Origin: an uncultured virus (IMG/VR IMGVR_UViG_3300043469_001223)
Taxonomy: Duplodnaviria > Heunggongvirae > Uroviricota > Caudoviricetes
Strand: one strand, 5' to 3'
Length of the DNA stretch: 20,000 nucleotides
Virus record (IMG/VR): IMGVR_UViG_3300043469_001223
Shown here piece by piece: positions 5,348 through 17,960 of the stretch. The notes under the pieces are model-generated. The model worked only from the letters and a program-made list of their open reading frames with translations. It was not told where the DNA came from and made no database searches. The stretch's first letter is position 1; each line of letters opens with the position of its first letter. Both the position numbers and the translations under genes were made by a program.

Positions 5348-5959
5348 ATGTTTGACAAGAATAGACCAGTAGGCATAGAAAGTATTAAAAGTTATGCTCA
5401 GAAAATTGAAAGTGGATTTTTAGAAAAGTACCTAAGCGGTAAGAACATTTTAGAAATTGGATACCAAGGATACAATGCAGGACGAGAAGTTGTTCCTATT
5501 GTAGAAAATGCAATTGGTATTGATCAGGGTTATCCGGGCTACGACGGGTTGCACCTGCCGTTTGAGGATGCTAGCCAAGATGCAGTATATAGCAGTCATG
5601 TACTTGAGCACATTCCGTATTGGGAACAAGTGTTACAGGAGTGGTTCCGAGTACTTAAAGTGGGAGGTTACATGGTAATTGTTGTACCACATTGGTTGTT
5701 ATACGAAAAGAAGAAAGATCTGCCCAGTCGCTTTGCAGGTGCGGGGCATTTTCGTTATTACTTACCTAGCACTCTGCTTGCAGAAGTCCAAGAGGCACTC
5801 CCACTAGGTGAATGGCGCTTACGTCATATGTGCGATAATGATGCAGGCTTTGACTACAGTTTGCCAGATACAACACACAGCGAAGGCTGCTACGAAATTG
5901 AGTGTGTGATTGAAAAGATTGCAGACCCAGCATACATTACACAGATGATGAACAGATGA
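5348..5959 (+). CDS. Class I SAM-dependent methyltransferase (Methyltransf_11-like)
   Basis: ILEIG motif I, LPFEDASQDAVYSSHVLEHI, EWFRVLKVGG; AAGGA SD. Confidence 0.85.
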   Translation: MFDKNRPVGIESIKSYAQKIESGFLEKYLSGKNILEIGYQGYNAGREVVPIVENAIGIDQGYPGYDGLHLPFEDASQDAVYSSHVLEHIPYWEQVLQEWFRVLKVGGYMVIVVPHWLLYEKKKDLPSRFAGAGHFRYYLPSTLLAEVQEALPLGEWRLRHMCDNDAGFDYSLPDTTHSEGCYEIECVIEKIADPAYITQMMNR

Positions 5960-7386
5960 AAAGAAACTTACTAATTGTATTAAGAACTTGTACCCGTGTT
6001 AACATGCTCAACGGTGAAAACATGGGCGGCCGCTATCACAAAGTACCTAAGCATGAGCTTGTAAATGTTTGCCTTAGCAGTATTGTAGATAGTATTAATC
6101 ACTGTGAAGGGCACGATGTTAAGCTAGTAGTCTTAGATGACAACAGCACACCCGAAGCAGTTGCTGATTTTAAAATCATCCTTGCACAATGCAAATCGTC
6201 TACAGAGTTTGTAGCAGTAACAGGCGGAACTGGTGCTAGCTACACTTGCAAGAAAGTCTATGAAATTGTAGATCAACAGTGTACAGACTTGTGGTATCAT
6301 GCAGAAGATGACTATCCGCATTTTCAAACAGCAATACAAGACATGCTAGATACTGTAACACAGTTTGAGCAGCAAACAGGCAAGATGATTGCAGTCAATC
6401 CGCATGACGATGTGTACCGTTACACAGCACAAGTTTACCCTAGCATTTTGTTGTTTGGTCCCCACAGGCATTATCGTACAGTTAAGCACAGTACCTATAC
6501 CTGCTTAGCCAGTCGTGCTGTATTTGACAAGTATCGCAAACACTTTGATGATGCAGCAGAATGGATATTGCGTAAAGATGAAAATGAAACTATCAATCAG
6601 GTATGGAACAAAGACCATGTTATGTTGTTCAGTCCTATTCCTAGCCTAAGCCTGCATATCACACTAGAGTCCTTAAAAGATCCTTACATTGATTTTGAGG
6701 GATTGTGGTACAGTATTCCGCAACTTTGGAAGCGTGGTGATCCTAGCAAGTACGCTATTGTTAGTATGTTCAATGAGCCACATTTTGAACTTGCCAAACA
6801 CACTTGGTTCAATAACAAAGACAAGTATGCAACACATCGCGGATACAAAGCCTTTTCTAAAATGGACGACTTTAGTTCAGAAGCAGTTCACTTTGATAAG
6901 TTTGTGCATATTTTGCAAGTAATGAACGATAATCCTAATCTATCTTGGGTGTGGTGGTTAGACAACGATGCTATGATTACCAACTTCAATTGCAAGATAG
7001 AAGATGTAATTGATGACAGCTATGACATCATCATGGCCACTGACATTGCCAGTCTTAACACAGGCAGCTTCTTTGTCAAGAACAGTGAGAACAGTCGGGT
7101 GTGGTTAGAGGATATGATCGGTAAGCGCAAGGACTACCTCAACGATAAGAAATGGTTTGATCAGCAGTGTGTTATCGACACTTATGTTACCTACAAGGAT
7201 ATTATTAAACTTGTACCACAACGTACTATGAACAGCTACGATTACAAGATGTATGGAGTCGACGGAATTGACATGTTAGGCAACGACGGACAGTGGCAGC
7301 AGGGTGATTGGGTAGTACACTGGCCAGGCTTGAACAATCAATTAAGAATACAATTGGCACAAAACTTTGCAAATGCTGTAGTATGA
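5956..7386 (+). CDS. Two-domain glycosyltransferase (GT-A/GT2-like + GT34-like)
   Basis: N-half VVLDDNS and YHAEDDY; C-half WVWWLDNDAMITN, LNTGSFFVKN, DQQ, GDWVVHWPG typical of GT34 (GMA12/MNN10) family. Confidence 0.8.
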   Translation: MKRNLLIVLRTCTRVNMLNGENMGGRYHKVPKHELVNVCLSSIVDSINHCEGHDVKLVVLDDNSTPEAVADFKIILAQCKSSTEFVAVTGGTGASYTCKKVYEIVDQQCTDLWYHAEDDYPHFQTAIQDMLDTVTQFEQQTGKMIAVNPHDDVYRYTAQVYPSILLFGPHRHYRTVKHSTYTCLASRAVFDKYRKHFDDAAEWILRKDENETINQVWNKDHVMLFSPIPSLSLHITLESLKDPYIDFEGLWYSIPQLWKRGDPSKYAIVSMFNEPHFELAKHTWFNNKDKYATHRGYKAFSKMDDFSSEAVHFDKFVHILQVMNDNPNLSWVWWLDNDAMITNFNCKIEDVIDDSYDIIMATDIASLNTGSFFVKNSENSRVWLEDMIGKRKDYLNDKKWFDQQCVIDTYVTYKDIIKLVPQRTMNSYDYKMYGVDGIDMLGNDGQWQQGDWVVHWPGLNNQLRIQLAQNFANAVV

Positions 7387-8390
7387 AATGTGCCTGGTTA
7401 GAAAATATGATGAGCATCGAAACAGACGGATGGACGCGACCGTGCTGTGCAGAACCGTCTAAGGATGCAAGGATAGCACATATTAATAACGGAATACAGG
7501 CAGCATGGAATAATTCTAAATTACTAGAATTAAGAGAGGAGTTAAAGAACGGTTATTCTAAAAAGACTCGACCATTTTGTAACAGATGCGAAATTTTAGA
7601 ATCTGCAGATCAACCTAGTATGCGTACCAGTACACCGTTTGCCACACAAGATAGGACATTAAAAACAATTCAATTTAAAATGAGTAACAAGTGCCAACTA
7701 ACTTGTGCTCATTGTGGTCCTGAGTTATCTACAGGATGGAAAAAGTTTTTAAAGATAACTCCGATAGCTTCCGATAGTTTTGAATTAACTGACGAATTTT
7801 TAAAAGAGTTAGGAGAATTACTACCGCAGATAACTTGTCTAAAATTTACCGGCGGCGAGCCTTTTCTCGACCCTAACCATTGGAAGATATTAGAATACTT
7901 ACAGCAGTTTGATAGAAGTCATTGTACATTAGAATATATAACAAACGGCATTAGTCCCTTTAGAGATGAACTATGGAAGGGTTGGCAATCTGTTAAATGC
8001 AGTGTCAGTGCAGATGGTTATGGAGAAACATACGAATGGTTTCGCAGAGGATCTTCCTGGGAAGAATTAATAAGTGGTGTCCGTGATCTAAAAGAAGTCA
8101 GCGATGTTAGTATAAATTTTGCAATGACTCCTTATACTATACAAGATTATCATACTGCTAAAAACTATTGGGGACGTATAGATACACATCTTATCGTGCA
8201 TCCTAAGCATGCCAGTCTTTTATATTTTCCTATGAACGTGTTAGAAAAACTTGATGATTATCAAACAATACCCTATGTAGACGGTGCAAGAGGATCTAAT
8301 TTATATTTTTATAAAAGTTGGGCAGAAGATTGGGATATGAAATGGAATACAAAAGGCTGGTCTAACAGGCTATTTTGGTGGATGACTTGA
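7383..8390 (+). CDS. Radical SAM enzyme with N-terminal SPASM/twitch-like domain
   Basis: CQLTCAHC CxxxCxxC motif, FTGGEPFL, ITNG; N-terminal C..RPCC..CNRC; start placed at ATGA overlap 7383. Confidence 0.85.
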   Translation: MKCAWLENMMSIETDGWTRPCCAEPSKDARIAHINNGIQAAWNNSKLLELREELKNGYSKKTRPFCNRCEILESADQPSMRTSTPFATQDRTLKTIQFKMSNKCQLTCAHCGPELSTGWKKFLKITPIASDSFELTDEFLKELGELLPQITCLKFTGGEPFLDPNHWKILEYLQQFDRSHCTLEYITNGISPFRDELWKGWQSVKCSVSADGYGETYEWFRRGSSWEELISGVRDLKEVSDVSINFAMTPYTIQDYHTAKNYWGRIDTHLIVHPKHASLLYFPMNVLEKLDDYQTIPYVDGARGSNLYFYKSWAEDWDMKWNTKGWSNRLFWWMT

Positions 8391-8394
8391 TATT

Positions 8395-9042
8395 ATGAGC
8401 AAAATTATTTCTTGGTCAAAAGACACAGTTCCTTTAGATCTAGTAGCAAAGATGCTAGACTTTTATAAAAAACAACAATCCTATGATACCAACTTTAAAG
8501 GAAAAGATCTTAGAGGAACACCTCCTACTCGAACAGATATACCTGAATTATACACATTTATTGAGTCTTTAGGTTATGTTATTTTAGATGACGAACCTAG
8601 TGGGAACTATCTCGAAACTGCAAGTCAGTATCCCATTCACGTTGATACTGGTAAAGACAATACTCACAGTTTAGATTATACAGTTTTTTTGTTTCCTTTA
8701 TATATTCCTGAAGATAGTGTTTCGTATTTGCTATTGTTAAATCAAAAATGGCTAGGTGAAGCAACTACCTTTGTCAAACAGCCTTGGACTAAGGGATGGA
8801 ACAATATGGTTACAAGTTATGAAGATATTCAAGGACTTGAGTATAACAAGTGGGATTCTCGATTAAACGAGTTAGGTATAATTTTCACAGATTCAACATT
8901 AGACGGAATGAGCATTGACACTATAATTAGTTGGAAAATAGGAAGTTTAGTTAGTTTCCCATGCAACCAGTTACACTTCTCAGTTACTACTAACCGTGTT
9001 CCTAAAATTGGATTAAGTCTGAGATTAAAGTGTAAACTATGA
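8395..9042 (+). CDS. Putative 2OG-Fe(II) oxygenase
   Basis: PIHVD HxD motif, distal QLH and K-x-G-x-S pattern. Confidence 0.55.
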   Translation: MSKIISWSKDTVPLDLVAKMLDFYKKQQSYDTNFKGKDLRGTPPTRTDIPELYTFIESLGYVILDDEPSGNYLETASQYPIHVDTGKDNTHSLDYTVFLFPLYIPEDSVSYLLLLNQKWLGEATTFVKQPWTKGWNNMVTSYEDIQGLEYNKWDSRLNELGIIFTDSTLDGMSIDTIISWKIGSLVSFPCNQLHFSVTTNRVPKIGLSLRLKCKL

Positions 9043-9542
9043 AAATTGCAATAACAGGTCATACACAAGGATTAGGGAAAGCGTTCTTTGATCATTTTCA
9101 GTCGCACGATGTTCTTGGATTTTCAAGAAGCAACGGTTACAACATATTCAGTCCGGTATCCAGAATTAAAATTTTAGAAGAAATTAAAGATGCTGATATG
9201 TTTATCAACAATGCATACAATAATTTTGATGATTCTCAGTTACAATTATTAAAAGAAGTTTACACGCTATGGGAAGGAACAAACAAAGTTATTGTTAATA
9301 TATCATCCCGATACACTACTGGTCCTGAAAAATATTGCAAAGATAAAGAACTACAGGATATATTTTGCAAGTCTAAAGAGTTTACCTTACCATATATAAT
9401 TAATTTAAAGCCGGGATTAATCGATACTAACAGAGTTAAACATATTCTAGGTAATAGATTATCAGTTAATGAAGTAGTAGATGTGTTAGATTTTGCATTA
9501 AATAGTAGTTACAAAGTGCATACCATAACATTTGGAAAATAG
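9039..9542 (+). CDS. Short-chain dehydrogenase/reductase
   Basis: ITGHTQGLG Rossmann motif, INNA, VNISS, YCKDK (YxxxK). Confidence 0.85.
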   Translation: MKIAITGHTQGLGKAFFDHFQSHDVLGFSRSNGYNIFSPVSRIKILEEIKDADMFINNAYNNFDDSQLQLLKEVYTLWEGTNKVIVNISSRYTTGPEKYCKDKELQDIFCKSKEFTLPYIINLKPGLIDTNRVKHILGNRLSVNEVVDVLDFALNSSYKVHTITFGK

Positions 9543-9590
9543 TGGTTGACAACGAATTACTGAAGACCAAGCCGCGGATATAATTTTAGC

Positions 9591-10076
9591 ATGATAAAAG
9601 TTTTAGGAAAAATTGACGAACAAGAAATATTAGATGCCTTTAATCTAATTGAAGAAAACATCCAATGGACATCCTACGGACACAAAGGGCGACAAGCCGG
9701 AGTTCAGTTTAAAGATAATGAAGATCCTTGGACTAGTGCAGTAGGAAGAAGTACTGGACAGGAATTAACATATACTAATTTAAATCCATTTTTTAAAAAT
9801 ACTATATTTGAAAATATAATAGCTCAATATAAATTAACTAGAACTAGATTAATGTGGGTAGACCCTTATGCATGTTATAGTATCCATCGAGACGAAACTC
9901 CAAGAATACACATACCTTTAATAACTAATCCTAGTTGCTATTTTGTTTTTCAATCTGGTAGAATAATACACTTGAATAAAAAATTAGTTTGGTGGGTTGA
10001 TACTCGAAAGCCCCACACTTTTATGAATTGCTCTGATGACCCTAGGCTACACCTTGTCGGTGTAGTAGAAAAGTAA
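9591..10076 (+). CDS. Asp/Asn beta-hydroxylase-like 2OG-Fe(II) oxygenase
   Basis: HRD..RIHIPLITN..DTRKPHT..N..RLHLV. Confidence 0.8.
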   Translation: MIKVLGKIDEQEILDAFNLIEENIQWTSYGHKGRQAGVQFKDNEDPWTSAVGRSTGQELTYTNLNPFFKNTIFENIIAQYKLTRTRLMWVDPYACYSIHRDETPRIHIPLITNPSCYFVFQSGRIIHLNKKLVWWVDTRKPHTFMNCSDDPRLHLVGVVEK

Positions 10077-10122
10077 TAAAATAAAAATTCGCCAAAATTG
10101 TGGCATTTTAACCACATACTTA

Positions 10123-10151
10123 TTGACAGACATAAATAGAAGCAGTACAAT
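10123..10151 (+). promoter_or_regulatory. Sigma70 promoter P1 of the tRNA array
   Basis: TTGACA-17nt-TACAAT. Confidence 0.75.
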
Positions 10152-10210
10152 AGAGACTAGTTAGGAAGAGAAGTTGTTAAAAACTTTTTGTTCAAAAGAA
10201 CAAATAAGGG

Positions 10211-10239
10211 TTGACAACAATGCTAAATAACTGTATAAT
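10211..10239 (+). promoter_or_regulatory. Sigma70 promoter P2 of the tRNA array
   Basis: Perfect TTGACA-17nt-TATAAT. Confidence 0.85.
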
Positions 10240-10298
10240 TAGAACATACACTGCAATAAGGTAGTGTATGTAACAAAAGGTTTTAAAGAGAAAACAAA

Positions 10299-10445
10299 AT
10301 GCAATCGTCCAATAGACATCAACAATTTAATACGATGCCCAAACAGGTAGGTGTAATAGCCTGCGGTTGGTTATCGATTAATGCGGGAAGTCTATCATAT
10401 GATCGTACACCAGAGATTTCTAGGGTCCGGAGGACTGTCGTGTAA
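10299..10445 (+). CDS. Putative attenuator leader peptide, 48 aa
   Basis: MQSSNRHQQFNTMPKQVGVIACGWLSINAGSLSYDRTPEISRVRRTVV; lies between promoter and terminator and contains the antiterminator strand. Confidence 0.6.
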   Translation: MQSSNRHQQFNTMPKQVGVIACGWLSINAGSLSYDRTPEISRVRRTVV

Positions 10446-10470
10446 CACACAAGTTAACACAACAAACTTC

Positions 10471-10509
10471 AAGGACCCTAGGATTAAAAACCCTGGGGTT
10501 TTTTGTTTT
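10471..10509 (+). terminator. Intrinsic terminator (attenuator)
   Basis: GGACCCTAGG-9nt-CCTGGGGTTT hairpin running into TTTTTTGTTTT. Confidence 0.8.
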
Positions 10510-10521
10510 CCGCAAGGAAGA

Positions 10522-10671
10522 ATGACAGATTTGAAGAGACAAGCTGAGTTTACAAAAGCGCATACTTTAACTAAACAAGATCTTCGCAAGATGATTTTGG
10601 AAAAGTTACAACGTGCAACTGCGTATTACGAAGCAAGTAGGAAGCGAGAGATTGCTCAAGGGCGGTCGTAG
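10522..10671 (+). CDS. Hypothetical 49-aa basic protein, first gene after attenuator
   Basis: AAGGAAG SD; MTDLKRQAEFTKAHTLTKQDLRKMILEKLQRATAYYEASRKREIAQGRS. Confidence 0.55.
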   Translation: MTDLKRQAEFTKAHTLTKQDLRKMILEKLQRATAYYEASRKREIAQGRS

Positions 10672-10783
10672 ATCGCAAAGTGTAATATAGTACGGGAACG
10701 AGGCCCGGGGAACGCACTTAAAACATGTTCTAAACGGGCGGACTAGTGGATGGCTTATCCTTATGTGGATAAAAAAATACTAG

Positions 10784-10856
10784 TTATTAAAGCAAATTGG
10801 TACCTGCTGACTCTGAATCAGAACAGGACGCATAGCGTAACAGTTTGTTTTAATAA
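10784..10856 (+). ncRNA. Stem-enclosed RNA with Gln(CUG)-type anticodon stem-loop
   Basis: TTATTAAAGCAAATTG/CAGTTTGTTTTAATAA stem; inside CTGA-CTCTGAA-TCAG. Confidence 0.55.
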
Positions 10857-10885
10857 GCACTTTCGAAAGAGAGTGTTAACAATTT

Positions 10886-10974
10886 GGAGCTTGTCCCCCA
10901 TTGCCAGCTGTAACCTGGTAGCCATTATTAAGTGGGGTGGCTGGCAAGAGGTTCAATTCCTTCAGGCTCCACCA
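10886..10974 (+). tRNA. Atypical tRNA-Tyr(GUA) lacking a D-arm
   Basis: 8-bp acceptor GGAGCTTG/CAGGCTCC, loop CTGTAAC, long variable arm, GGTTCAATTCC, ACCA. Confidence 0.6.
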
Positions 10975-10981
10975 ATTTTAT

Positions 10982-11057
10982 CTCGCATTCGGTTAGCGGC
11001 TATGCCACCTGGTTTGGGGCCAGGATTTCGAAGGTTCGAGTCCTTCATGCGAGACCA
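10982..11057 (+). tRNA. tRNA-Pro(UGG)
   Basis: Cloverleaf, loop TTTGGGG, CCA. Confidence 0.9.
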
Positions 11058-11066
11058 AGTTTAAAT

Positions 11067-11158
11067 GGAAAGTAATGCAGCGGGGTTGGTCCTGCGACCA
11101 GCCTTGAAAACTGGGTTCTCAGAAATGGGATGGGGTTCGACTCCTCTGCTTTCCGCCA
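11067..11158 (+). tRNA. tRNA-Ser(UGA)
   Basis: Loop CTTGAAA, long variable arm, GCCA. Confidence 0.88.
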
Positions 11159-11164
11159 AGACAA

Positions 11165-11193
11165 TTGACAAATTCTACATAAGATTGTATAAT
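11165..11193 (+). promoter_or_regulatory. Sigma70 promoter
   Basis: TTGACA-17nt-TATAAT. Confidence 0.8.
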
Positions 11194-11201
11194 TACATTA
11201 T

Positions 11202-11317
11202 GCGACCGTAAGTGGAATATGGCAGACCTCCCGTTATGCTCATAGCATAGGTCAGGGGAAGGGGCACATAACATAGTTACCGTGCTCTTGTAGGTTCGAG
11301 ACCTACCGGTCGTACCA
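11202..11317 (+). tRNA. Oversized (116 nt) tRNA-like gene, Leu-type body, CAU loop on extended arm
   Basis: Acceptor GCGACCG/CGGTCGT-ACCA, T-arm GTAGG-TTCGAGA-CCTAC, TATG-CTCATAG-CATA hairpin. Confidence 0.55.
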
Positions 11318-11321
11318 GTTT

Positions 11322-11384
11322 TAGGATCAGTTCAGCAAACTTAAAAACTTTTTTATTATTCAAAAAAACCAAAGTTGATCCTGT
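11322..11384 (+). ncRNA. TAGG/CAGCAA family RNA, copy A
   Basis: TAGGATCA..CAGCAA..TGATCCTG; T6/A6 hairpin with 7-nt loop ATTATTC. Confidence 0.65.
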
Positions 11385-11392
11385 TTTATTAT

Positions 11393-11467
11393 GTATCCCT
11401 AGTGTCAGCGGCAGCACGCCGGTCTCCAAAACCGTTAGGCTTGGTTCAAATCCAAGGGGGTATGCCA
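11393..11467 (+). tRNA. tRNA-Trp(CCA)
   Basis: Loop CTCCAAA, GCCA. Confidence 0.88.
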
Positions 11468-11471
11468 GTTT

Positions 11472-11529
11472 TAGGATGCGTCCAGCAAATCAAAAAATTC
11501 AACTTTTAATTGAAAAATAAGCATCCTGT
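11472..11529 (+). ncRNA. TAGG/CAGCAA family RNA, copy B (Lys UUU anticodon stem-loop)
   Basis: TAGGATGC..CAGCAA..TTCAA-CTTTTAA-TTGAA..GCATCCTG. Confidence 0.7.
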
Positions 11530-11536
11530 TTTTTGT

Positions 11537-11610
11537 TCCCGGATTGTGTAATGGTAGCACAACAGACTTTGACTCTGTTAGCCTAGGTTCGATCCCTAGT
11601 CCGGGTGCCA
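11537..11610 (+). tRNA. tRNA-Gln(UUG)
   Basis: Loop CTTTGAC, GCCA. Confidence 0.9.
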
Positions 11611-11633
11611 ATATTTTGTTAGACTTCTTAGGT

Positions 11634-11704
11634 GTGGCTATAGTGTAATGGTAGCACTACATGTTGTGACCTTGTCAGTACGGGTTCAAATCCCGTTAGT
11701 CACC
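11634..11704 (+). tRNA. tRNA-His(GUG), no encoded G-1 or CCA
   Basis: Acceptor GTGGCTA/TAGTCAC, loop TTGTGAC, C73 followed by CCT. Confidence 0.82.
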
Positions 11705-11719
11705 CCTAAGCAGTTTATT

Positions 11720-11751
11720 CCTCTTGTAGTTAAATGGTATAACAATCGCTT
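11720..11751 (+). pseudogene. Orphan 5' half of a tRNA
   Basis: CCTCTTG-TA-GTTA-AATGGTA-TAAC-A-ATCGC-TT, with no T-arm or 3' acceptor strand following. Confidence 0.65.
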
Positions 11752-11764
11752 TCCTGGCGAGCGT

Positions 11765-11772
11765 TATAAATA
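11765..11772 (+). promoter_or_regulatory. T4-like late promoter for the endonuclease
   Basis: TATAAATA then AGGAG SD and ATG 11789. Confidence 0.65.
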
Positions 11773-11788
11773 CTTGTAGGAGAACACT

Positions 11789-12190
11789 ATGAGTATATCA
11801 AACGAAAAAGGTGAAATAGGAGAAGCAGCATTTGTGCTCGTTTCTGCCAAAAGAGGATATTGGACTGGCAAAATGCCACAAGGTTGTCCTTATGATTATG
11901 TGTTAGATAGACACGACGGTAAACTTTTACGAATTCAAGTTAAGTTTAGATCGTTAGAAAGTAACGGAATAGTTACAATTAAACTATCTCAAAACACATT
12001 TACAAATAGAGTTTCTTACAATGAAAGTAACATCGATTATATTGCAGTCTATGTAAATGAATTAGATAAAGTATATCTCGTTCCTATTGCAGAAATATGC
12101 GATGTAAAAGAAGTTAAACTGCGATGTGTAGAATCAACAAAAAGAAAAGATAAAAACTCTCGTATAATAACAGAATACGCAGAGTGGTAA
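11789..12190 (+). CDS. PD-(D/E)XK putative homing endonuclease (PDDEXK_5 / I-Ssp6803I-like)
   Basis: KGEIGE..PYDYVLD..RIQVK..Y..IDYIAVY..VYLVP motif order. Confidence 0.8.
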   Translation: MSISNEKGEIGEAAFVLVSAKRGYWTGKMPQGCPYDYVLDRHDGKLLRIQVKFRSLESNGIVTIKLSQNTFTNRVSYNESNIDYIAVYVNELDKVYLVPIAEICDVKEVKLRCVESTKRKDKNSRIITEYAEW

Positions 12191-12195
12191 TTTAT

Positions 12196-12270
12196 GGCCA
12201 CGTAACTCAGAGGCAGAGTACCGTCTTGATAAGGCGGGAGTCGACATTTCGAAATTGTCCGTGGCTACCA
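12196..12270 (+). tRNA. tRNA-Ile(GAU)
   Basis: Loop TTGATAA, ACCA; T53-T61 in place of G53-C61. Confidence 0.85.
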
Positions 12271-12277
12271 ATTTTAT

Positions 12278-12356
12278 CTGTGTGTAATGTCAGTCAGGTC
12301 AGACGGCCGGCCTTGGAAGTCGGAGGTCGCAGGTTCGAATCCTGCCACACAGACCA
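12278..12356 (+). tRNA. tRNA-Pro(UGG), A37 variant
   Basis: Loop CTTGGAA, ACCA. Confidence 0.85.
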
Positions 12357-12362
12357 GTTTAT

Positions 12363-12439
12363 GCATCGGTGACAGAGCGGCCAATGTAGCGGATTGCAAA
12401 TCCGTCCAGTCGTGGGTTCGAGTCCCACCCGATGTTCCA
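12363..12439 (+). tRNA. tRNA-Cys(GCA)
   Basis: Loop TTGCAAA, TCCA. Confidence 0.9.
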
Positions 12440-12446
12440 GTTTATT

Positions 12447-12522
12447 GCCCTTGAAGCCTTTAATGGATGAGGTCCTGTCTTGTAAGCAGGGGAAGTCGGT
12501 TCGATTCCGGACTGGGGCACCA
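12447..12522 (+). tRNA. tRNA-Thr(UGU)
   Basis: Loop CTTGTAA, ACCA; irregular T/acceptor stems. Confidence 0.8.
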
Positions 12523-12529
12523 ATACAAT

Positions 12530-12605
12530 GCAACTTTAGCTGATGTGGTCATAGCGGTGGTCTGAAGAGCCATTGAAGTAGGTTCGATCCCTACAGGTTG
12601 CACCA
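12530..12605 (+). tRNA. tRNA-Phe(GAA), G37 variant
   Basis: Loop CTGAAGA, ACCA. Confidence 0.85.
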
Positions 12606-12612
12606 ATTTTAT

Positions 12613-12688
12613 CCTTGAGTTAAGCGGGGCCGTATACACCCTTGCCAATAGTTAGTAATGTGTACTGCGACATACACCTCGAGGGCCA
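12613..12688 (+). ncRNA. tRNA-sized RNA with acceptor stem and CCA but non-canonical arms
   Basis: CCTTGAG/CTCGAGG-GCCA, 76 nt, GTGTA-CTGCGACA-TACAC in T-arm position. Confidence 0.55.
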
Positions 12689-12695
12689 AGTTTAT

Positions 12696-12769
12696 GCGTG
12701 GTTCGTTTAATGGTAAGATCACTGGCTTCCACCCAGTAGTTAAGGGTTCGATTCCCTTACCCCGCACCA
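12696..12769 (+). tRNA. tRNA-Gly(UCC), A73 variant
   Basis: Loop CTTCCAC, ACCA. Confidence 0.85.
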
Positions 12770-12772
12770 GTT

Positions 12773-12836
12773 TAGGATACTTACAGCAAACCAAAATATT
12801 TCACTTTTTGGCTGTGAAAAGCAAACAGTATCCTGT
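12773..12836 (+). ncRNA. TAGG/CAGCAA family RNA, copy C (UUG-centred loop)
   Basis: TAGGATACT..CAGCAA..TTTCAC-TTTTTGGCT-GTGAAA..AGTATCCTG. Confidence 0.68.
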
Positions 12837-12880
12837 TTAATAGTGTTGTTAAAATACAACAAAAATAGTTGCAAAGACTA

Positions 12881-12952
12881 TTGACAAGGAGGTAAAACCT
12901 TGCTATAATTAACACATACACTAAGCAATTAGATGTAAATGTTCTTTAAAAA
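12881..12952 (+). promoter_or_regulatory. Sigma70 promoter with downstream hairpin and boxA-like site
   Basis: TTGACA-17-TATAAT (12881-12909); CTAA-GCAA-TTAG; TGTTCTTTAAAAA (12940-12952). Confidence 0.78.
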
Positions 12953-12968
12953 TTTACAGTATAAGAAG

Positions 12969-13081
12969 TTCTTATACACATACACACAAATGCTTAGGCC
13001 AAGCAGATAGAGGTGGTATCTAGCTGGACGAGAAGTCCAGTTGGCAGGTTCGAGTCCTGTGAGTGTGTAGTTGTATAAGAA
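12969..13081 (+). ncRNA. tRNA-like RNA with long variable arm inside extended stem, no CCA
   Basis: TTCTTATACA/TGTATAAGAA; arms GCTT/AAGC, AGATA/TATCT, AGCTGGAC/GTCCAGTT, GCAGG-TTCGAGT-CCTGT. Confidence 0.6.
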
Positions 13082-13085
13082 TTTT

Positions 13086-13162
13086 ACTTCGTTCGTCTAC
13101 GTGGTTTAGGACGCTAGCCTTTCAAGTTGGAAAAACGGGTTCGAGTCCCGTACGGAGTACCA
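13086..13162 (+). tRNA. tRNA-Glu(UUC)
   Basis: Loop CTTTCAA, ACCA. Confidence 0.88.
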
Positions 13163-13165
13163 AGT

Positions 13166-13264
13166 TAACAACACTCAACGCACTGTAGGATGGCATTCAG
13201 TCTCCCTGCCAGCGAGGGATGAGAGTGGCAGGCATAACTGGTTAATGTTATGCTTGTGTTATTA
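13166..13264 (+). ncRNA. Unidentified structured RNA
   Basis: TAACAACAC/GTGTTATTA closing stem; TCCCT/AGGGA, CTGCCA/TGGCAG, GGCATAAC/GTTATGCT. Confidence 0.45.
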
Positions 13265-13269
13265 GTTTT

Positions 13270-13345
13270 GCCACAGTAGTCCTCTGGGTAGGGCACCGGA
13301 TTGTCTATCCGATTTAGGCGGGTTCGATTCCCGTCTGTGGCGCCA
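13270..13345 (+). tRNA. tRNA-Asp(GUC), U37
   Basis: Loop TTGTCTA, GCCA. Confidence 0.85.
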
Positions 13346-13351
13346 AGTTAT

Positions 13352-13438
13352 GGAGATGTAGGAAAATTGGTAACCCCAGTGGACTGTAAATCCGCCGCCC
13401 GAAAGGCACTACTGGTTCGACTCCAGTCGTCTCCACCA
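13352..13438 (+). tRNA. tRNA-Tyr(GUA)
   Basis: Loop CTGTAAA, variable arm, ACCA. Confidence 0.9.
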
Positions 13439-13445
13439 AGTTAAT

Positions 13446-13520
13446 GGTCCTGTCATATAGTGGTTATTATACCGGCCTGTCTAGTCGGATATCGGGGTTC
13501 GATTCCCCGCAGGATCGCCA
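13446..13520 (+). tRNA. tRNA-Asp(GUC), U37
   Basis: Loop CTGTCTA, GCCA. Confidence 0.88.
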
Positions 13521-13528
13521 AAATTTAT

Positions 13529-13607
13529 TCCGTGAAATCCAAGCATGGTGCAAGGACTTGACTGTTAATCAATGATTAGGTGAGTTCGATCCTCACACAC
13601 GGAGCCA
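13529..13607 (+). tRNA. tRNA-Asn(GUU)
   Basis: Loop CTGTTAA, GCCA. Confidence 0.85.
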
Positions 13608-13616
13608 ATACAATTT

Positions 13617-13691
13617 GGGGGCAGCAGAGGGCTGCGGCGTTGCCTTGCAAGCATCGTGACTAGAGGGGTTCGATACCCCCGGCCTCCACCA
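13617..13691 (+). tRNA. tRNA-Ala(UGC), reduced D-arm
   Basis: Loop CTTGCAA, G3-U70, ACCA. Confidence 0.75.
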
Positions 13692-13699
13692 AACATTTT

Positions 13700-13775
13700 G
13701 CCACAATAGCTCCAATGGTAGAGCAGCGGATTGAAAATTCGTGTGTTACTGGTTCGAGTCCAGTTTGTGGCACCA
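13700..13775 (+). tRNA. tRNA-Phe(GAA)
   Basis: Loop TTGAAAA, ACCA. Confidence 0.9.
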
Positions 13776-13838
13776 AACAAGGGCCGTGAGATAATATCAA
13801 GACGATCGGCGCTGGAGCACCTACCCAGCACAAATTTT

Positions 13839-13899
13839 TAGGATAGCAACAGCAAAATCAAAAATTTCACTGTTAATGAAACCAAAAATGCTATCCTGT
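13839..13899 (+). ncRNA. TAGG/CAGCAA family RNA, copy D (Asn GUU anticodon stem-loop)
   Basis: TAGGATAGCA..CAGCAA..TTTCA-CTGTTAA-TGAAA..TGCTATCCTG. Confidence 0.7.
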
Positions 13900-13906
13900 T
13901 TTATTT

Positions 13907-13981
13907 GCCCGCATAGTATAATGGATAATACACTGGTCTACGAAACCGGGGATTGTGGTTCGATTCCATATGTGGGCACCA
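13907..13981 (+). tRNA. tRNA-Arg(ACG)
   Basis: Loop CTACGAA, ACCA. Confidence 0.9.
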
Positions 13982-13988
13982 AGTTAAT

Positions 13989-14066
13989 GGGCGATGACTG
14001 TTGTAAAGGATAACAGGCGGTAGCAACCCTGCCGTGACAGTGGTTCGATTCCACTATCGTCCACCA
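13989..14066 (+). tRNA. tRNA with non-canonical anticodon loop (GCAACCC)
   Basis: Good acceptor GGGCGAT/ATCGTCC-ACCA and T-arm; no U33. Confidence 0.6.
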
Positions 14067-14069
14067 AGT

Positions 14070-14279
14070 TTTGTAAGTGTCAGCAAGTAGAGTCACGCTG
14101 TCTAGGTATGTTCGAACTACCAAAACAGTAGAAGGTAGCGGGTTCGATCCCCGTCCGATCGGAAGATCGGAATACAGTTGGAGTATCGTCTGGACAAAGC
14201 CCAAGTGACGTATCTTGACCCTGCCGGCTTTATTACAAGGGAAAATGGTTGCGATATGAGGGACGCAACAGCTTACAAA
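14070..14279 (+). ncRNA. ~210-nt structured RNA with two T-loop hairpins
   Basis: TTTGTAAG/CTTACAAA ends, GTCAC/GTGAC, GGTA-TGTTCGAAC-TACC, GCGGG-TTCGATC-CCCGT. Confidence 0.6.
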
Positions 14280-14289
14280 TTCAATGCGG

Positions 14290-14318
14290 TTGACAACTAC
14301 CCTAAAAGGTTGTATAAT
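14290..14318 (+). promoter_or_regulatory. Sigma70 promoter
   Basis: TTGACA-17nt-TATAAT. Confidence 0.82.
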
Positions 14319-14347
14319 AGAAACTTAAACACAAAAGAGGTAATGAC

Positions 14348-14371
14348 ATGAAACGTTCAGGTAAACGATAG
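14348..14371 (+). CDS. Putative leader mini-ORF MKRSGKR
   Basis: GAGGT SD 6 nt upstream; ATG AAA CGT TCA GGT AAA CGA TAG; stop abuts switchable hairpin. Confidence 0.55.
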   Translation: MKRSGKR

Positions 14372-14443
14372 TGTCAATCTTAGATCCCGTATATGGTCTA
14401 GGGTTGGCACATTAAAGACAAATTTAATATGCAACAACCCTAG
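14371..14443 (+). promoter_or_regulatory. Mutually exclusive hairpins overlapping tRNA-Lys 5' end
   Basis: 14371-14386 pairs with 14395-14410, or 14398-14416 pairs with 14423-14443. Confidence 0.65.
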
Positions 14444-14514
14444 CTGGCGTTTAACGGTAGCGTACTCGGCTCTTAACCGATGAGGTGTCAGTTCGAATCT
14501 GACGCTAGGGACCA
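14438..14514 (+). tRNA. tRNA-Lys(CUU)
   Basis: CCCTAGC/GCTAGGG-ACCA, loop CTCTTAA. Confidence 0.85.
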
Positions 14515-14519
14515 TATAT

Positions 14520-14597
14520 GGGATTGTAGTGTCAACGGTTTAGCACAGCGGACTTTTAATCCGCCAGGTTCCGGTTCGAATCCGGACAGTCCTACCA
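14520..14597 (+). tRNA. tRNA-Lys(UUU)
   Basis: Loop CTTTTAA, ACCA. Confidence 0.9.
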
Positions 14598-14690
14598 TAT
14601 CAAAGCTCACTAGAACTAGTGTGGGCATCCGCTTCCTCACGTAGTGCAGGAGGCGTAACGGTTCGATTCCGCTAGTGTGTTTTGATATGG
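14595..14690 (+). ncRNA. Stem-enclosed RNA with T-arm
   Basis: CCATATCAAAGCTCACTAG/CTAGTGTGTTTTGATATGG; CGG-TTCGATT-CCG. Confidence 0.55.
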
Positions 14691-14763
14691 TAACGTAGCA
14701 TAATGGTTGTGCAACACCTTCATACGGTGCCCGGTGTGAGTTCGAATCTCACCGTTACTACCA
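14689..14763 (+). tRNA. tRNA-Met(CAU)
   Basis: Loop TTCATAC, ACCA. Confidence 0.85.
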
Positions 14764-14768
14764 AACAT

Positions 14769-14844
14769 GTCCCATTCATCTAGAGGCCTAGGATAGTACC
14801 CTTTCACGGTATTTACAGCGGTTCGAATCCGCTATGGGACGCCA
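14769..14844 (+). tRNA. tRNA-Glu(UUC)
   Basis: Loop CTTTCAC, GCCA. Confidence 0.9.
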
Positions 14845-14846
14845 AG

Positions 14847-14993
14847 TTTTGAGATAGACGTTGAAGTAGAGTCCCTTGTGCGCTAGGTCCCTATTCTTGA
14901 GACTGACACACCAGTAGCAACACAAGGTAGTTTAAACTCCTTCATACGAGACAAGCCAGTGAGTCCTTGAGAAAGATAGCTGGTCTCTCAAAA
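14847..14993 (+). ncRNA. Unidentified structured RNA
   Basis: TTTTGAGA/TCTCAAAA ends; TGAAG..GAGT/ACTC..CTTCA; CCTTGTG/CACAAGG; CCAG/CTGG. Confidence 0.5.
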
Positions 14994-15001
14994 ACCTATT
15001 T

Positions 15002-15079
15002 GCCCCTGTAGCCCAATTGGTAGCAGGCAACAGTCTTAAACATTGTCAAGTACCGGTTCGAATCCGGTCAGGGGTACCA
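15002..15079 (+). tRNA. tRNA with UAA (Leu) anticodon but short variable loop
   Basis: ACAGT-CTTAAAC-ATTGT, ACCA. Confidence 0.78.
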
Positions 15080-15085
15080 AACAAT

Positions 15086-15175
15086 AGTGAGTTGCCAGAG
15101 AGGCCTATTGGCGCATCTTGGAAAGGTGATGGTTCCGTAAGGGGCACGAGAGTTCGAATCTCTCACTCACTGCCA
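15086..15175 (+). tRNA. tRNA-Ser(GGA)
   Basis: Loop TTGGAAA, long variable arm, GCCA. Confidence 0.9.
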
Positions 15176-15176
15176 C

Positions 15177-15251
15177 ACCGCTTTCGTATAATGGATAATA
15201 CGGCAGGCTTCTACCCTGCGAATATGGGTTCGATTCCTGTAGGCGGTACCA
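15177..15251 (+). tRNA. tRNA-Arg(UCU)
   Basis: Loop CTTCTAC, ACCA. Confidence 0.9.
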
Positions 15252-15256
15252 CATAT

Positions 15257-15331
15257 CGGTCTTTGGTGAAATGGATATCATCTCGGTCTTCGAAACCGAG
15301 GGTGGGAGTTCGATCCTCTCAAGACCGGCCA
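15257..15331 (+). tRNA. tRNA-Arg(UCG)
   Basis: Loop CTTCGAA, GCCA. Confidence 0.9.
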
Positions 15332-15334
15332 TAT

Positions 15335-15409
15335 CTCGCTATAGTACAATGGATAGTACGGGGTCCTCCTAAGACTTAAATGTAGGTTCGATTCCTACTG
15401 GCGGGACCA
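15335..15409 (+). tRNA. tRNA-Arg(CCU)
   Basis: Loop CTCCTAA, ACCA. Confidence 0.9.
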
Positions 15410-15449
15410 AGTTTTATATACAGTTAATGATAAATATTTGTTTACTATT

Positions 15450-16940
15450 ATGAATGTTATTATTATACAAACAATTAGCGATTATCGGGGCGCCGCTCCT
15501 AGATCAATTGGGGGTCACCAATTAGCTTGGTATTTAAGACTCTTTGGTTATACAGTACAGGTTATAAATTATTCTGAACCAATTTTTACATTGGATAAAG
15601 TAAATGCACTGTTTGAAAAATTTGTAACAGATGAAACCAAAGTTATAGGCCTTGGAGGAATTTTATTAGAAGCTAACGATGTATTCTTTTCTATATTCAG
15701 TTCAGCAATTAAACAACTTAAAACAAAACATCCAAATTTAAAAATAATAGCCGGTGGCCCATCTGTTGGTATAATTAAAGGAAAATTAAAAAAAACACTT
15801 GATTATTATTTTACAGGTCATGCTGAAAATACAATGTTACAATTTTGCAATTGGATTTTTAAAAAAGGTCCACAGCCATTTGTCGAAATAGGTGCAGACG
15901 GTTACAAAATTGTAAAAGAATCTTCGTATCAAAGTAATGAAGGATTTTCAATTGAGCAGTGTAATTTTAGGTGGCATGACAGTGATGCTATACAGCCAAA
16001 TGAAGCATTGCCGTTAGAAACAACCAGGGGATGCATTTTTAAGTGTAAATTCTGTCAATATCCGTTAATTGGAAAAAATAAAAAAGATTTCCTTAAACCG
16101 ATGGAAAATATAAGAGATGAGTTACTTGACAATTACGAAAGATTTGGAACAACGAATTATTATATTTTAGACGATACATTTAATGCAGACACCGAAAGAT
16201 TGGAAGAATTTGCCAAAATGGTATCATCCTTACCTTTTAAAATTAAATATGCAACTTATTTAAGATTAGATTTAATTGAGGCTCATCGTCATACTGAAGA
16301 TATGTTATTGGAAAGCGGTCTTTATGGAGCTTTTTTTGGAATAGAAAGTTTTAATAAAGATGCATCTGCTTTGGTAGGAAAGGCATTTAGCGGAAAAAAA
16401 GCCAAAGACTATTTGCCTCATTTGTTACAGGACAGATGGCAGGGAAAAGTAAAAGAACATCTTAGTTTTATCGCAGGCATTCCTCCAGAAACATTAGATG
16501 ATTTAAAAGAAACTCATAACTGGTGTGTCGATAATAAAATAACATCCTGGAAAATAATTCCCTTATTACTTAATAAACCTGATACTTCGGTATTCACTAG
16601 TGAGTTTGAACGTAATGCAGAAAAATATGGATTTGAAATAATACAGGTATTGCCCGAGTCTTACGCTATTGGTAAGCGTCTCTGGAGACAAACTTGGTGG
16701 AAGCATTCATCAGGTCTTACATTTTTAGATGTAGTAAAATGGACAAATTTGCTAACTGAAAGCGCGGCCCCGCATGTTAAAAGAGGCGGCTGGAACGCAG
16801 TTGAAGTCCTACAATTTGGATACACTGTTGAAGAAATAGATAGACTGCGATGGGGCGAATACAACTTAGACAATGAATGGCAAAATAGAGTTCACTTGTT
16901 TGTACAAACGTATTATAATGATCTCATGTCTCTAAAATAA
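15450..16940 (+). CDS. B12-binding-domain-type radical SAM protein
   Basis: KIIAGGP..GHAE N-domain, ETTRGCIFKCKFC, YILDDTFN, FFGIES; ATG at 15450 after ATAAATA. Confidence 0.88.
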   Translation: MNVIIIQTISDYRGAAPRSIGGHQLAWYLRLFGYTVQVINYSEPIFTLDKVNALFEKFVTDETKVIGLGGILLEANDVFFSIFSSAIKQLKTKHPNLKIIAGGPSVGIIKGKLKKTLDYYFTGHAENTMLQFCNWIFKKGPQPFVEIGADGYKIVKESSYQSNEGFSIEQCNFRWHDSDAIQPNEALPLETTRGCIFKCKFCQYPLIGKNKKDFLKPMENIRDELLDNYERFGTTNYYILDDTFNADTERLEEFAKMVSSLPFKIKYATYLRLDLIEAHRHTEDMLLESGLYGAFFGIESFNKDASALVGKAFSGKKAKDYLPHLLQDRWQGKVKEHLSFIAGIPPETLDDLKETHNWCVDNKITSWKIIPLLLNKPDTSVFTSEFERNAEKYGFEIIQVLPESYAIGKRLWRQTWWKHSSGLTFLDVVKWTNLLTESAAPHVKRGGWNAVEVLQFGYTVEEIDRLRWGEYNLDNEWQNRVHLFVQTYYNDLMSLK

Positions 16941-16976
16941 ACATTTAGATTTGATTCCTAGTGATAACACAAAAAT

Positions 16977-17050
16977 GCTCTTGTAGTACAATGGTAGTAC
17001 ACTGTCTTGGTACGACAGCAATCAAAGTTCGATTCTTTGCTTGAGCACCA
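16977..17050 (+). tRNA. tRNA-Thr(GGU)
   Basis: Loop TTGGTAC, ACCA. Confidence 0.85.
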
Positions 17051-17070
17051 AAAATATTTTTAAATACCTG

Positions 17071-17139
17071 TTGACACACACTGAGAAAGACAGTATAATT
17101 TATACATACGCTGCTAATAACAGCACTGTTCTTTAAAAA
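17071..17139 (+). promoter_or_regulatory. Sigma70 promoter with downstream hairpin and boxA-like site
   Basis: TTGACA-17-TATAAT (17071-17099); GCTG/CAGC hairpin; TGTTCTTTAAAAA (17127-17139). Confidence 0.78.
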
Positions 17140-17156
17140 TGTAAAGTTAGTATTTT

Positions 17157-17240
17157 GCGAGAGTGGAGAAATGGTATACTCAGCAGACTTAAAATCTGCC
17201 GCCGAAAGGCATACGGGTTCGAGTCCCGTCTCTCGCACCA
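17157..17240 (+). tRNA. tRNA-Leu(UAA)
   Basis: Loop CTTAAAA, variable arm, ACCA. Confidence 0.92.
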
Positions 17241-17360
17241 TTAATTGAATCCTTTGCAAGCACAGAGGTTTGATCATACGTTATGTAACCTATTCAATAA
17301 ACCGTCAACTCGAGTAAAGCGTGTTGAGGATAGGCATATAGTGTAGAGGATTCAACTAAT
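17241..17360 (+). ncRNA. Unidentified structured RNA
   Basis: TTGAATCCTTTGCA/TGTAGAGGATTCAA closing stem; CCTATTC/GGATAGG inside. Confidence 0.5.
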
Positions 17361-17368
17361 GGAAATTT

Positions 17369-17458
17369 GGTGCGGTCCTATAATGGTATTAGAGCGGATT
17401 GCTAATCCGTCGCTCGGCGTAATCCGGGTTCTGAGTTCGAGTCTCAGTCGCACCGCCA
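17369..17458 (+). tRNA. tRNA-Ser(GCU)
   Basis: Loop TTGCTAA, long variable arm, GCCA. Confidence 0.9.
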
Positions 17459-17467
17459 AACATACAT

Positions 17468-17559
17468 GCCAGCGAGACTTGGTAGTCAGAGAGGCCTTAT
17501 AGACCTTTTAGCGCCAGATTAGCGTTCTTGAGAGGGTTCGATCCCCTCCGCTGGTACCA
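17468..17559 (+). tRNA. Atypical tRNA with UAU anticodon, mini D-arm and long variable arm
   Basis: GCCAGCG/CGCTGGT-ACCA, GACT-TGGT-AGTC, loop CTTATAG, AGCGC/GCGTT arm. Confidence 0.7.
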
Positions 17560-17568
17560 ATGATTGAT

Positions 17569-17645
17569 GCGCCTATAGCTCAGTTGGTCAGAGCAGAGGA
17601 CTCATAATCCTTTGGTCCTAGGTTCAAGTCCTAGTGGGCGCACCA
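17569..17645 (+). tRNA. tRNA-CAU (probably Ile2)
   Basis: Loop CTCATAA, ileX-like body, ACCA. Confidence 0.85.
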
Positions 17646-17662
17646 AGTTATTAAAATAGAGG

Positions 17663-17691
17663 TTGACAGGATTATAAATATCCTGTATAAT
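17663..17691 (+). promoter_or_regulatory. Sigma70 promoter with nested TATAAATA late promoter
   Basis: TTGACA-GGAT-TATAAATA-TCCTG-TATAAT. Confidence 0.8.
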
Positions 17692-17699
17692 AAAAATTT

Positions 17700-17783
17700 G
17701 CCCCGGTGGTGTAATGGTAGCCACGCTGGTCTTAGAAGCCAGTGCCGAGAGGCGTGTCGGTTCGAGTCCGACCTGGGGCACCA
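17700..17783 (+). tRNA. tRNA-Leu(UAG)
   Basis: Loop CTTAGAA, variable arm, ACCA. Confidence 0.92.
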
Positions 17784-17866
17784 TATTAAAACACATACAG
17801 ATCCGCCCTCTAGTAGGGGAGATAGCGACTAGCGTTGAAGGACTGTTTAAATGTGTTTTAATATGG
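17781..17866 (+). ncRNA. Stem-enclosed RNA
   Basis: Perfect 16-bp CCATATTAAAACACAT/ATGTGTTTTAATATGG. Confidence 0.55.
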
Positions 17867-17939
17867 GCTGATAGTGATAATGGGAGCACAGTGGCTTTGC
17901 AAGCCTCGGGTGGGAGTTCGATCCTCCCTCGGTCCACCA
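17865..17939 (+). tRNA. tRNA-Ala(UGC)
   Basis: Loop TTTGCAA, G3-U70, ACCA. Confidence 0.88.
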
Positions 17940-17960
17940 TAAAATTTTTTAAGGAATAAA

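Follow-up and report, generated by a model that had tools for sequence, protein, structure and literature searches.

Transcription of the enterobacterial amino-acid operons is controlled by leader-peptide attenuators, including trpL, hisL, pheL, leuL, thrL, and ilvL, and to our knowledge every classical attenuator of this type responds to a single amino acid or a small number of them and regulates the corresponding biosynthesis. T-box riboswitches bind one specific uncharged tRNA directly, with no translation involved, and control aminoacyl-tRNA synthetase and amino-acid genes. The pheL leader is presented as a leader-peptide attenuator in the available portion of PMC3082878, and the available portions of PMC9226507 and PMC6851288 describe the vmlR and tylosin-induced yxjB leaders of Bacillus subtilis as ribosome-mediated attenuators that sense translation inhibitors. 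Phage-encoded tRNAs, in turn, are treated as a counter-defence against tRNA-cleaving immunity in the portions of PMC11555353 and PMC11464382 at hand; these supply a reason for a phage to produce tRNAs itself once those of the host fail, but they concern tRNA function and not a transcription switch. The excerpts returned by a full-text literature search describe no leader-peptide attenuator in front of tRNA genes and no leader peptide containing all amino acids. The cassette described here combines hardware of the known attenuator type with a leader containing all 20 amino acids, placed ahead of tRNA genes.

The cassette lies on the + strand of a 20,000-nt stretch of uncultured-virus DNA (the window, to which all coordinates refer), which is part of a 207,813-base viral contig; the CheckV completeness of this contig is estimated at 58%, and its source is thus a very large phage. 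Window and contig sequences differ at a single position (window 6616), and the cassette is present once in each. Its elements are ordered as a sigma70 promoter, a 5' hairpin, an ORF, a long hairpin, and an intrinsic terminator. As in trpL-type systems, a short promoter-proximal ORF is combined with an intrinsic terminator and a mutually exclusive antiterminator, and in masked folds (see below) a ribosome at the stop codon covers the antiterminator 5' strand, whereas an upstream stall would give readthrough. Unlike those systems, the cassette has no regulatory codon runs, each amino acid mostly being used once or twice; its ORF is longer (43 to 53 codons across the family) and conserved in sequence; the genes downstream are phage tRNA genes and a small ORF rather than biosynthetic genes; and there is no clear 1:2 anti-antiterminator, so that untranslated cassette RNA should read through. 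With T-box riboswitches it would share the coupling of tRNA charging to a choice between antiterminator and terminator, but it would be read by the ribosome, and any tRNA could count. The vmlR and yxjB leaders, as described in the available text of PMC9226507 and PMC6851288, would resemble the cassette in that a leader ORF reports general slowing of ribosomes and opens downstream transcription; polymerase pausing is involved there and may be here. They differ in responding to drug-bound ribosomes at particular peptide contexts and in controlling resistance genes, and no all-amino-acid composition is reported for them in that text. The promoter, the conservation of the ORF, the exclusive and covarying RNA structures, their geometry, the all-amino-acid content, and the position ahead of the array were all computed from the DNA, and we consider the cassette to be probably a ribosome-read transcription attenuator that heads the phage tRNA array and gauges aminoacyl-tRNA supply.

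The cassette promoter (10211 to 10239, TTGACA-17-TATAAT) matches the sigma70 consensus at 12 of 12 positions, and a promoter-like site upstream (10123 to 10151, TTGACA-17-TACAAT, 11 of 12) may feed transcripts into the cassette. Folding places a 9-bp hairpin at the 5' terminus of the transcript (10246 to 10269). The ATG of the leader ORF at 10299 is 53 nt past the inferred transcription start and follows an A-rich leader (10285 to 10298) with a weak Shine-Dalgarno-like GAG (10288 to 10290) about 10 nt 5' of the start codon; a purine-rich GAG or GGA is kept at this distance in the alignment of relatives, and the element is weaker than the GGA or AGGA preceding other genes in the window. The ORF itself (10299 to 10445) has 48 codons, uses 37 distinct codons, and encodes all 20 amino acids and an internal Met. 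It contains a hairpin (10347 to 10364) followed by a U-rich run with a Trp codon, together forming a candidate RNA polymerase pause signal (10347 to 10374), and a block that is invariant across the viral loci and encodes Asp35 to Ile40 (10401 to 10418). The antiterminator hairpin (10418 to 10483, -30.6 kcal/mol) is built from a conserved 7-bp base helix (10422 to 10428 with 10473 to 10479), a 4-bp second helix past a two-A bulge (about 10430 to 10433 with 10467 to 10470), and a variable top that contains the ORF stop codon (10443 to 10445). The intrinsic terminator (10471 to 10509, -15.3 kcal/mol) has a 12-bp stem (10471 to 10482 with 10492 to 10503), a 9-nt loop, and a U6-G-U4 tract. The earlier note had placed a promoter, ORF, terminator, and antiterminator here, and a sequence check found each of them at its position, including the complementarity of 10418 to 10428 with 10473 to 10483 and the pairing of 10473 to 10482 with 10492 to 10501, which lengthens to the 12-bp terminator stem; its count of a 48-codon ORF with every amino acid and 37 codons was also reproduced.

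To define the family, 64 viral loci were collected by peptide patterns, and a large protein collection contains 57 protein homologues of the leader peptide. Metagenomes were searched with a 17-nt DNA pattern from the 3' part of the cassette (the invariant block) rather than with an ORF call; more than 119 stretches matched, and among the 80 of these analysed, 56 have the hairpin-terminator signature, 7 are cut 3', and 17 are unrelated chance matches. The 64 viral and 56 metagenome loci reduce to 94 distinct cassettes, and a promoter matching at 11 or 12 of 12 positions precedes the ORF in 89 of them. Retention of the ORF among homologues, a prediction of the earlier note, is borne out: it is open in every evaluable locus. 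It runs intact from a conserved ATG to its stop in 63 of the 64 viral loci, the remaining one being truncated where its contig ends, and likewise in 54 of 54 metagenome loci that could be evaluated, besides which two are cut 5'. The alternative two frames contain 0 to 8 stops. Insertions and deletions upstream of the hairpin are in-frame only (multiples of three), and those in the hairpin strand are single-base changes that are compensated, such that the frame reaches the same stop. The pN/pS ratio is 0.45 at codons 1 to 40 and 1.28 in the hairpin-coded tail. We conclude from this conservation that the leader ORF is likely translated.

Synonymous divergence (pS) of the ORF is 0.285, half of that in the neighbouring small gene (0.537), and third-position periodicity is absent (entropies of 0.44, 0.47, and 0.51 at the three positions), which together indicate that RNA-level constraints overlie the coding constraint. 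Two blocks (10326 to 10343 and 10401 to 10418) are frozen at all codon positions, synonymous sites included, and among the viral loci the second varies only at the third base of an Arg codon; many residues present in several copies are also invariant. The idea that a leader needs only to contain every amino acid accounts for neither the synonymously frozen blocks nor the invariant multi-copy residues. Constraint of this sort would be expected if the product of the cassette were a stable small RNA (about 265 nt) functioning as such, with an incidental ORF, and the transcript is indeed strongly structured: 10246 to 10512 folds at -84.7 kcal/mol (z of -5.65, with 0 of 200 shuffles as stable) and its 5' domain has a z of -4.45. 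Pieces of relatives also occur among contigs from RNA libraries. Nonetheless, an incidental ORF would not be open at every evaluable locus, with in-frame indels, compensated frameshifts, and a pN/pS below 1, and there is no Rfam family match, so that we regard a small RNA as very improbable.

Rfam gives no match for 10211 to 10512 at the gathering threshold, including the Trp, His, Leu, Thr, and Phe leaders and the T-box, and at E values up to 10 the sole match is freshwater-2, with 19.9 bits against a gathering score of 49.9. A blastn search of deposited phage records with 9500 to 11500 returned tRNA-like pieces only and no cultured carrier. One complete cassette with an all-20 leader is present on a 6.2-kb contig of a Polynucleobacter MAG among the GTDB genomes (L197), which is either a weak host lead or mis-binned phage DNA and is too weak to name a host. 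Among RNA data, 24 metatranscriptome runs contain 7 to 15% of the sampled words, and contigs of relatives in four RNA-library runs from four studies cover 10270 to 10540 and 10640 to 10790. These contigs are assembled and are uninformative on expression level, starts, and ends; two from one run stop at 10509 and those of another run cross the terminator, and we draw no conclusion from them about termination or habitat.

The antiterminator and the terminator use a common strand, 10471 to 10483, and because the 3' strand of the long hairpin is the 5' arm of the terminator, the two structures are mutually exclusive. The minimum-free-energy fold of the transcript (10246 to 10512) contains the long hairpin and not the terminator, and the hairpin folds in 48 of 48 relatives with energies of -20 to -32 kcal/mol, compared with -14 to -17 kcal/mol for the terminator. 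Because the MAFFT alignment misplaces the hairpin strands, RNAalifold detected the terminator only, and per-sequence folds and a covariance-model alignment were used instead. Among the 48 sequences, the base helix starts with an AU pair in 35, a GC pair in 9, and a GU pair in 4, and another of its pairs is CG in 47 and UA in 1; the covariance-model alignment, with 81 distinct sequences, has AU in 46, GC in 27, and GU in 8 at this first pair, with none unpaired. In that alignment, where about 20 sequences are still misplaced at two base-helix pairs, 91% of base-helix cells are paired, compared with 87.0% after shuffling (none of 500 shuffles attains 91%) and 21 to 68% when the partner strand is slid. 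The 38 distinct hairpins all fold, and the hairpin top differs wholly in sequence between subfamilies while its pairing is always retained. Chimeric hairpins average -20.9 kcal/mol, compared with -24.4 kcal/mol for native ones, with 273 of 1,388 matching native stability, which lends modest support. In the terminator, 100% of cells are paired in the 48 sequences and one pair has changed on both sides. The earlier note's expectation of compensatory changes in homologues is thus realized, as the antiterminator/terminator pair is both conserved and covarying.

Two further hairpins are retained. Seven of the nine pairs of the 5' hairpin have changed on both sides among 48 aligned relatives, and the mid-ORF hairpin, which together with its U-rich run may act as a polymerase pause signal, forms in 71 of 71 distinct segments, the run being kept as well, and keeps the pattern GGY-N4-7-RCC in 69. 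We found no upstream strand that pairs with the antiterminator 5' strand, in either whole-transcript or masked folds. A helix between the start-codon region and 10401 to 10407, proposed by RNAalifold, was rejected; its pairs are all invariant, and it is missing in diverged members.

The geometry of the ORF relative to the hairpin is similarly constant. The stop codon falls within the hairpin top wherever this could be judged, and among 92 to 94 cassettes it is 20 to 34 nt (median, 21) past the start of the helix and 18 to 38 nt before the 3' strand. We folded the transcript with a 30-nt ribosome mask; the size of the ribosome footprint and the trp-type model are textbook figures. With no ribosome, or with one at the start codon, the fold has 15 antiterminator and 0 terminator pairs, and the same is obtained for stalls at Lys15, Cys22, Tyr34, or Asp35. 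With the ribosome at the stop or the last codons there are 0 antiterminator and 8 terminator pairs, and a stall at Glu39 gives 4 antiterminator and 8 terminator pairs. Masking thus switches the predicted fold between the antiterminator and the terminator as the earlier note had claimed.

From these features we infer that the leader is translated, that its translation is coupled to transcription, which way the switch works in vivo, and what triggers it physiologically. Host RNA polymerase would initiate at the consensus promoter, and a ribosome would load onto the leader ORF, with the mid-ORF pause hairpin possibly synchronizing the two. If the ORF is read smoothly to its stop, the ribosome would cover the long hairpin along its 5' strand and at its top, and the freed strand 10471 to 10483 would pair downstream to form the terminator, ending transcription at about 10509. 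If a ribosome is absent, or is stalled up to about Asp35, the more stable hairpin would form first, blocking the terminator and allowing transcription into the small ORF and the first tRNA genes. Because the leader contains every amino acid, mostly once or twice, together with an internal Met, the switch would report a shortage of almost any aminoacyl-tRNA. With each amino acid present once or twice and no runs, a mild shortage should give brief pauses only, and single codons would be expected to give a weak signal unless a tRNA is nearly gone.

Complete amino-acid content is a trait of the family and not only of this leader. Among 145 unique peptides (43 to 53 residues), 126 contain 20 amino acids, 19 contain 19, and none has fewer; those with 19 are without Cys (13 peptides), Val (4), Tyr (1), or Lys (1). 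Each of the 145 has an internal Met, there are no codon runs, and a mean of 6.1 amino acids are present exactly once per peptide. By comparison, the full set is reached by 1.5% of 48-residue windows taken from long ORFs of this phage, by 2.5% of random peptides with the phage composition, by 1 of 125 small ORFs of the contig, and by 1.6 to 4.7% of peptides drawn from the family's own pooled composition. Shuffling of alignment columns gives 54% complete peptides compared with the observed 88% (0 of 2,000 shuffles reach it), in a control that ignores relatedness. Complete peptides are found in 10 of 11 clusters formed at 60% identity of the N-terminal part, including peptides of 43 residues, whereas the neighbouring small-ORF family, of the same length and from the same genomes, has 14 to 18 amino-acid types.

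The residues that complete the set are retained but not in place. On a FastTree tree of 100 cassettes, built with the trait's own columns included, Cys has relocated at least 29 times and Tyr at least 20 times, yet Cys is absent from only 6 leaves and Tyr from 1; all-amino-acid content has thus been kept through many relocations. A residue that is retained yet moves is expected if only its presence in the reading frame counts. The proposal of the earlier note that the leader samples the whole tRNA pool would fit the 126 complete peptides but is overstated, as 19 of the 145 lack one residue and a stall at Glu39 leads to the terminator in the masked fold. In 37 of 49 members, 9 nt separate the sole Glu codon from the hairpin downstream, too close for Glu to be sensed, and the codons at least 5 before the helix specify 19 amino acids (no Glu) in 37 of 49 members and 20 in 9. 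Also against the attenuator reading, the Shine-Dalgarno-like element is weak and the leader is not enriched for codons read by phage tRNAs (40 of 48, compared with 86% in long ORFs); its codon bias gives no signal.

The wandering but retained Cys and Tyr and the constant internal Met are explained by none of the alternatives to an aminoacyl-tRNA sensor. One of these is that the same attenuator hardware responds to another signal, either ribosome availability and general transcription-translation coupling, or a ligand that promotes nascent-peptide arrest near the stop codon, as in TnaC-type leaders, where the nascent peptide arrests the ribosome near the stop in response to a ligand. An arrest peptide would fit the invariant Trp (Trp24) and the Asp-Arg-Thr-Pro-Glu-Ile segment, which is 8 to 13 residues before the stop, as well as the pN/pS of 0.45 and the invariance of multi-copy residues, which a leader that merely contains every amino acid does not need; a single codon per amino acid would in turn fit a general sensor. 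However, that segment is frozen at synonymous sites too, which points to constraint at the level of RNA, and either signal leaves the moving yet retained Cys and Tyr, the constant internal Met, and the 126 of 145 complete peptides unaccounted for. We therefore consider a different signal unlikely.

A more mundane alternative is that the ORF is an ordinary small phage gene with its own promoter and its own terminator, whose peptide is functional itself and whose hairpin and terminator form a compound 3' end. Residues 1 to 40 are conserved with a pN/pS similar to that of the neighbouring small gene, whose family has a value of 0.42 and normal codon periodicity. The last 8 to 10 residues, in contrast, evolve as RNA, with a pN/pS of 1.28 and frame-shifted variants; competition from a hairpin of twice its stability would make the terminator a poor plain one; and a peptide that folds or binds would not be expected to keep Cys and Tyr irrespective of where they lie. 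AlphaFold2 with 58 sequences predicts no confident fold for the peptide (pLDDT of 56.5, pTM of 0.15), a result that we otherwise treat as neutral, and it has no family match: neither the leader peptide nor the 49-aa product of the downstream small ORF matches a family in PHROGs or Pfam, and the best Protein Atlas score (0.85) is below a meaningful level. An ordinary small gene is, in our estimation, decidedly improbable, and an attenuator gauging aminoacyl-tRNA supply is the reading that we favour.

ARAGORN identifies 38 tRNA genes spanning 10982 to 19720 in the window and 40 in the contig, fewer than the approximately 45 estimated in the earlier note, and the contig's 40 represent all 20 amino acids. 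The first gene past the terminator is a small ORF of 49 aa (10522 to 10671), and the first called tRNA beyond the switch is tRNA-Pro(UGG) (10982 to 11057). A same-strand tRNA array follows the cassette in 49 of 51 distinct loci, starting 200 to 961 nt past the terminator, and the two loci with no called array have little downstream sequence; in metagenome loci, whose flanks are too short, downstream tRNAs are called in 5 of 52. A tRNA gene is present within 1.5 kb upstream of the cassette in only 3 of 49 loci, and a tmRNA in one; the latter is a permuted tmRNA called by ARAGORN (295 to 711 of L047), approximately 800 nt upstream of the L047 cassette. One observation speaks against the attenuator reading: in the two closest syntenic relatives (L003 and L012; 70% identity in the upstream gene), promoters lead directly to a tRNA-Met gene and there is no cassette.

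Control of the whole array by this switch, as the earlier note had it, is overstated. The contig has 32 perfect sigma70 promoters, compared with 0.35 in shuffled sequences, and six with 12 of 12 matches are on the + strand of the window (10211, 11165, 12881, 14290, 17071, and 17663). Five of these lie inside the array, so the switch can gate at most the first unit, with some added downstream readthrough; the unit gated by the switch alone ends at the next consensus promoter (11165 to 11193). No promoter matching at 10 or more of 12 positions is present between the terminator and tRNA-Pro (10512 to 10982), but a strong promoter lies between the terminator and the first tRNA in 12 of 51 loci. 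Given the internal promoters and these 12 loci, tRNA expression does not depend on the switch, which modulates tRNA transcription and cannot be its sole gate. Fourteen perfect promoters on the opposite strand of the whole contig cluster near one contig end, many with the common spacer GGTAAAACC.

A more ambitious interpretation sees in the cassette a universal alarm by which giant phages would monitor tRNA integrity. Loss of any tRNA species, by cleavage or depletion through a host defence or by degradation during infection itself, would stall the ribosome at the one matching codon, form the antiterminator, and boost phage tRNA production; this counter-defence circuit would be self-correcting, through negative feedback when decoding is restored. 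We offer this tentatively and think it more doubtful than not; a link between the cassette and tRNA damage or anticodon nucleases is conjectural. A switch of the kind that we favour would directly gauge overall decoding capacity and feed back on tRNA supply, and it offers a testable answer to the question of how large phages time expression of their tRNA arrays, with ties to current interest in tRNA-cleaving defences and phage tRNAs. At about 300 bp and with a host sigma70 promoter, the cassette would also be a compact and portable reporter of translation stress, and rare residues retained irrespective of position leave an unusual, clean signature by which other genomes can be searched.

Several other features were observed around the cassette. 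A small ORF begins 9 to 17 nt past the terminator in 33 of 51 loci; the product of 10522 to 10671 is charged, and other loci have a second, unrelated small-ORF family in its place. A second conserved element (GGAAACGAG ... GCACTTAAAAC) follows the small ORF here, at 10672 to 10745, and adjoins the terminator directly in loci that have no small ORF; pieces of this element are included in the RNA-library contigs. The stretch from 10513 to 10981 folds with a z of -4.67, and its last part (10888 to 10981) is a tRNA-like element of about 94 nt with a 7-bp acceptor stem, a T-loop-like GGTTCAATTCC, and an encoded CCA, which abuts tRNA-Pro and is not called by ARAGORN or Rfam. A second tRNA-like sequence, with a long arm, is present at 11067 to 11154; its score with the tRNA-Sec model, 33.9 bits, falls short of the gathering score (47), and it has 73 to 85% blastn identity to tRNA regions of Mycobacterium and Pseudomonas phages. 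Within the array are ORFs for a PD-(D/E)XK endonuclease (11789 to 12190) and a 500-aa radical SAM protein (15438 to 16940). Just 5' of the cassette (5348 to 10076) are methyltransferase, glycosyltransferase, radical SAM/SPASM, and Asp/Arg-hydroxylase-like genes. At 2115 to 4178 is a fusion of a CHASE2 sensor with an adenylate/guanylate cyclase domain, with 41% identity to a Methylophilales phage Melnitz gene and 37% to a Pelagibacter phage HTVC008M gene.
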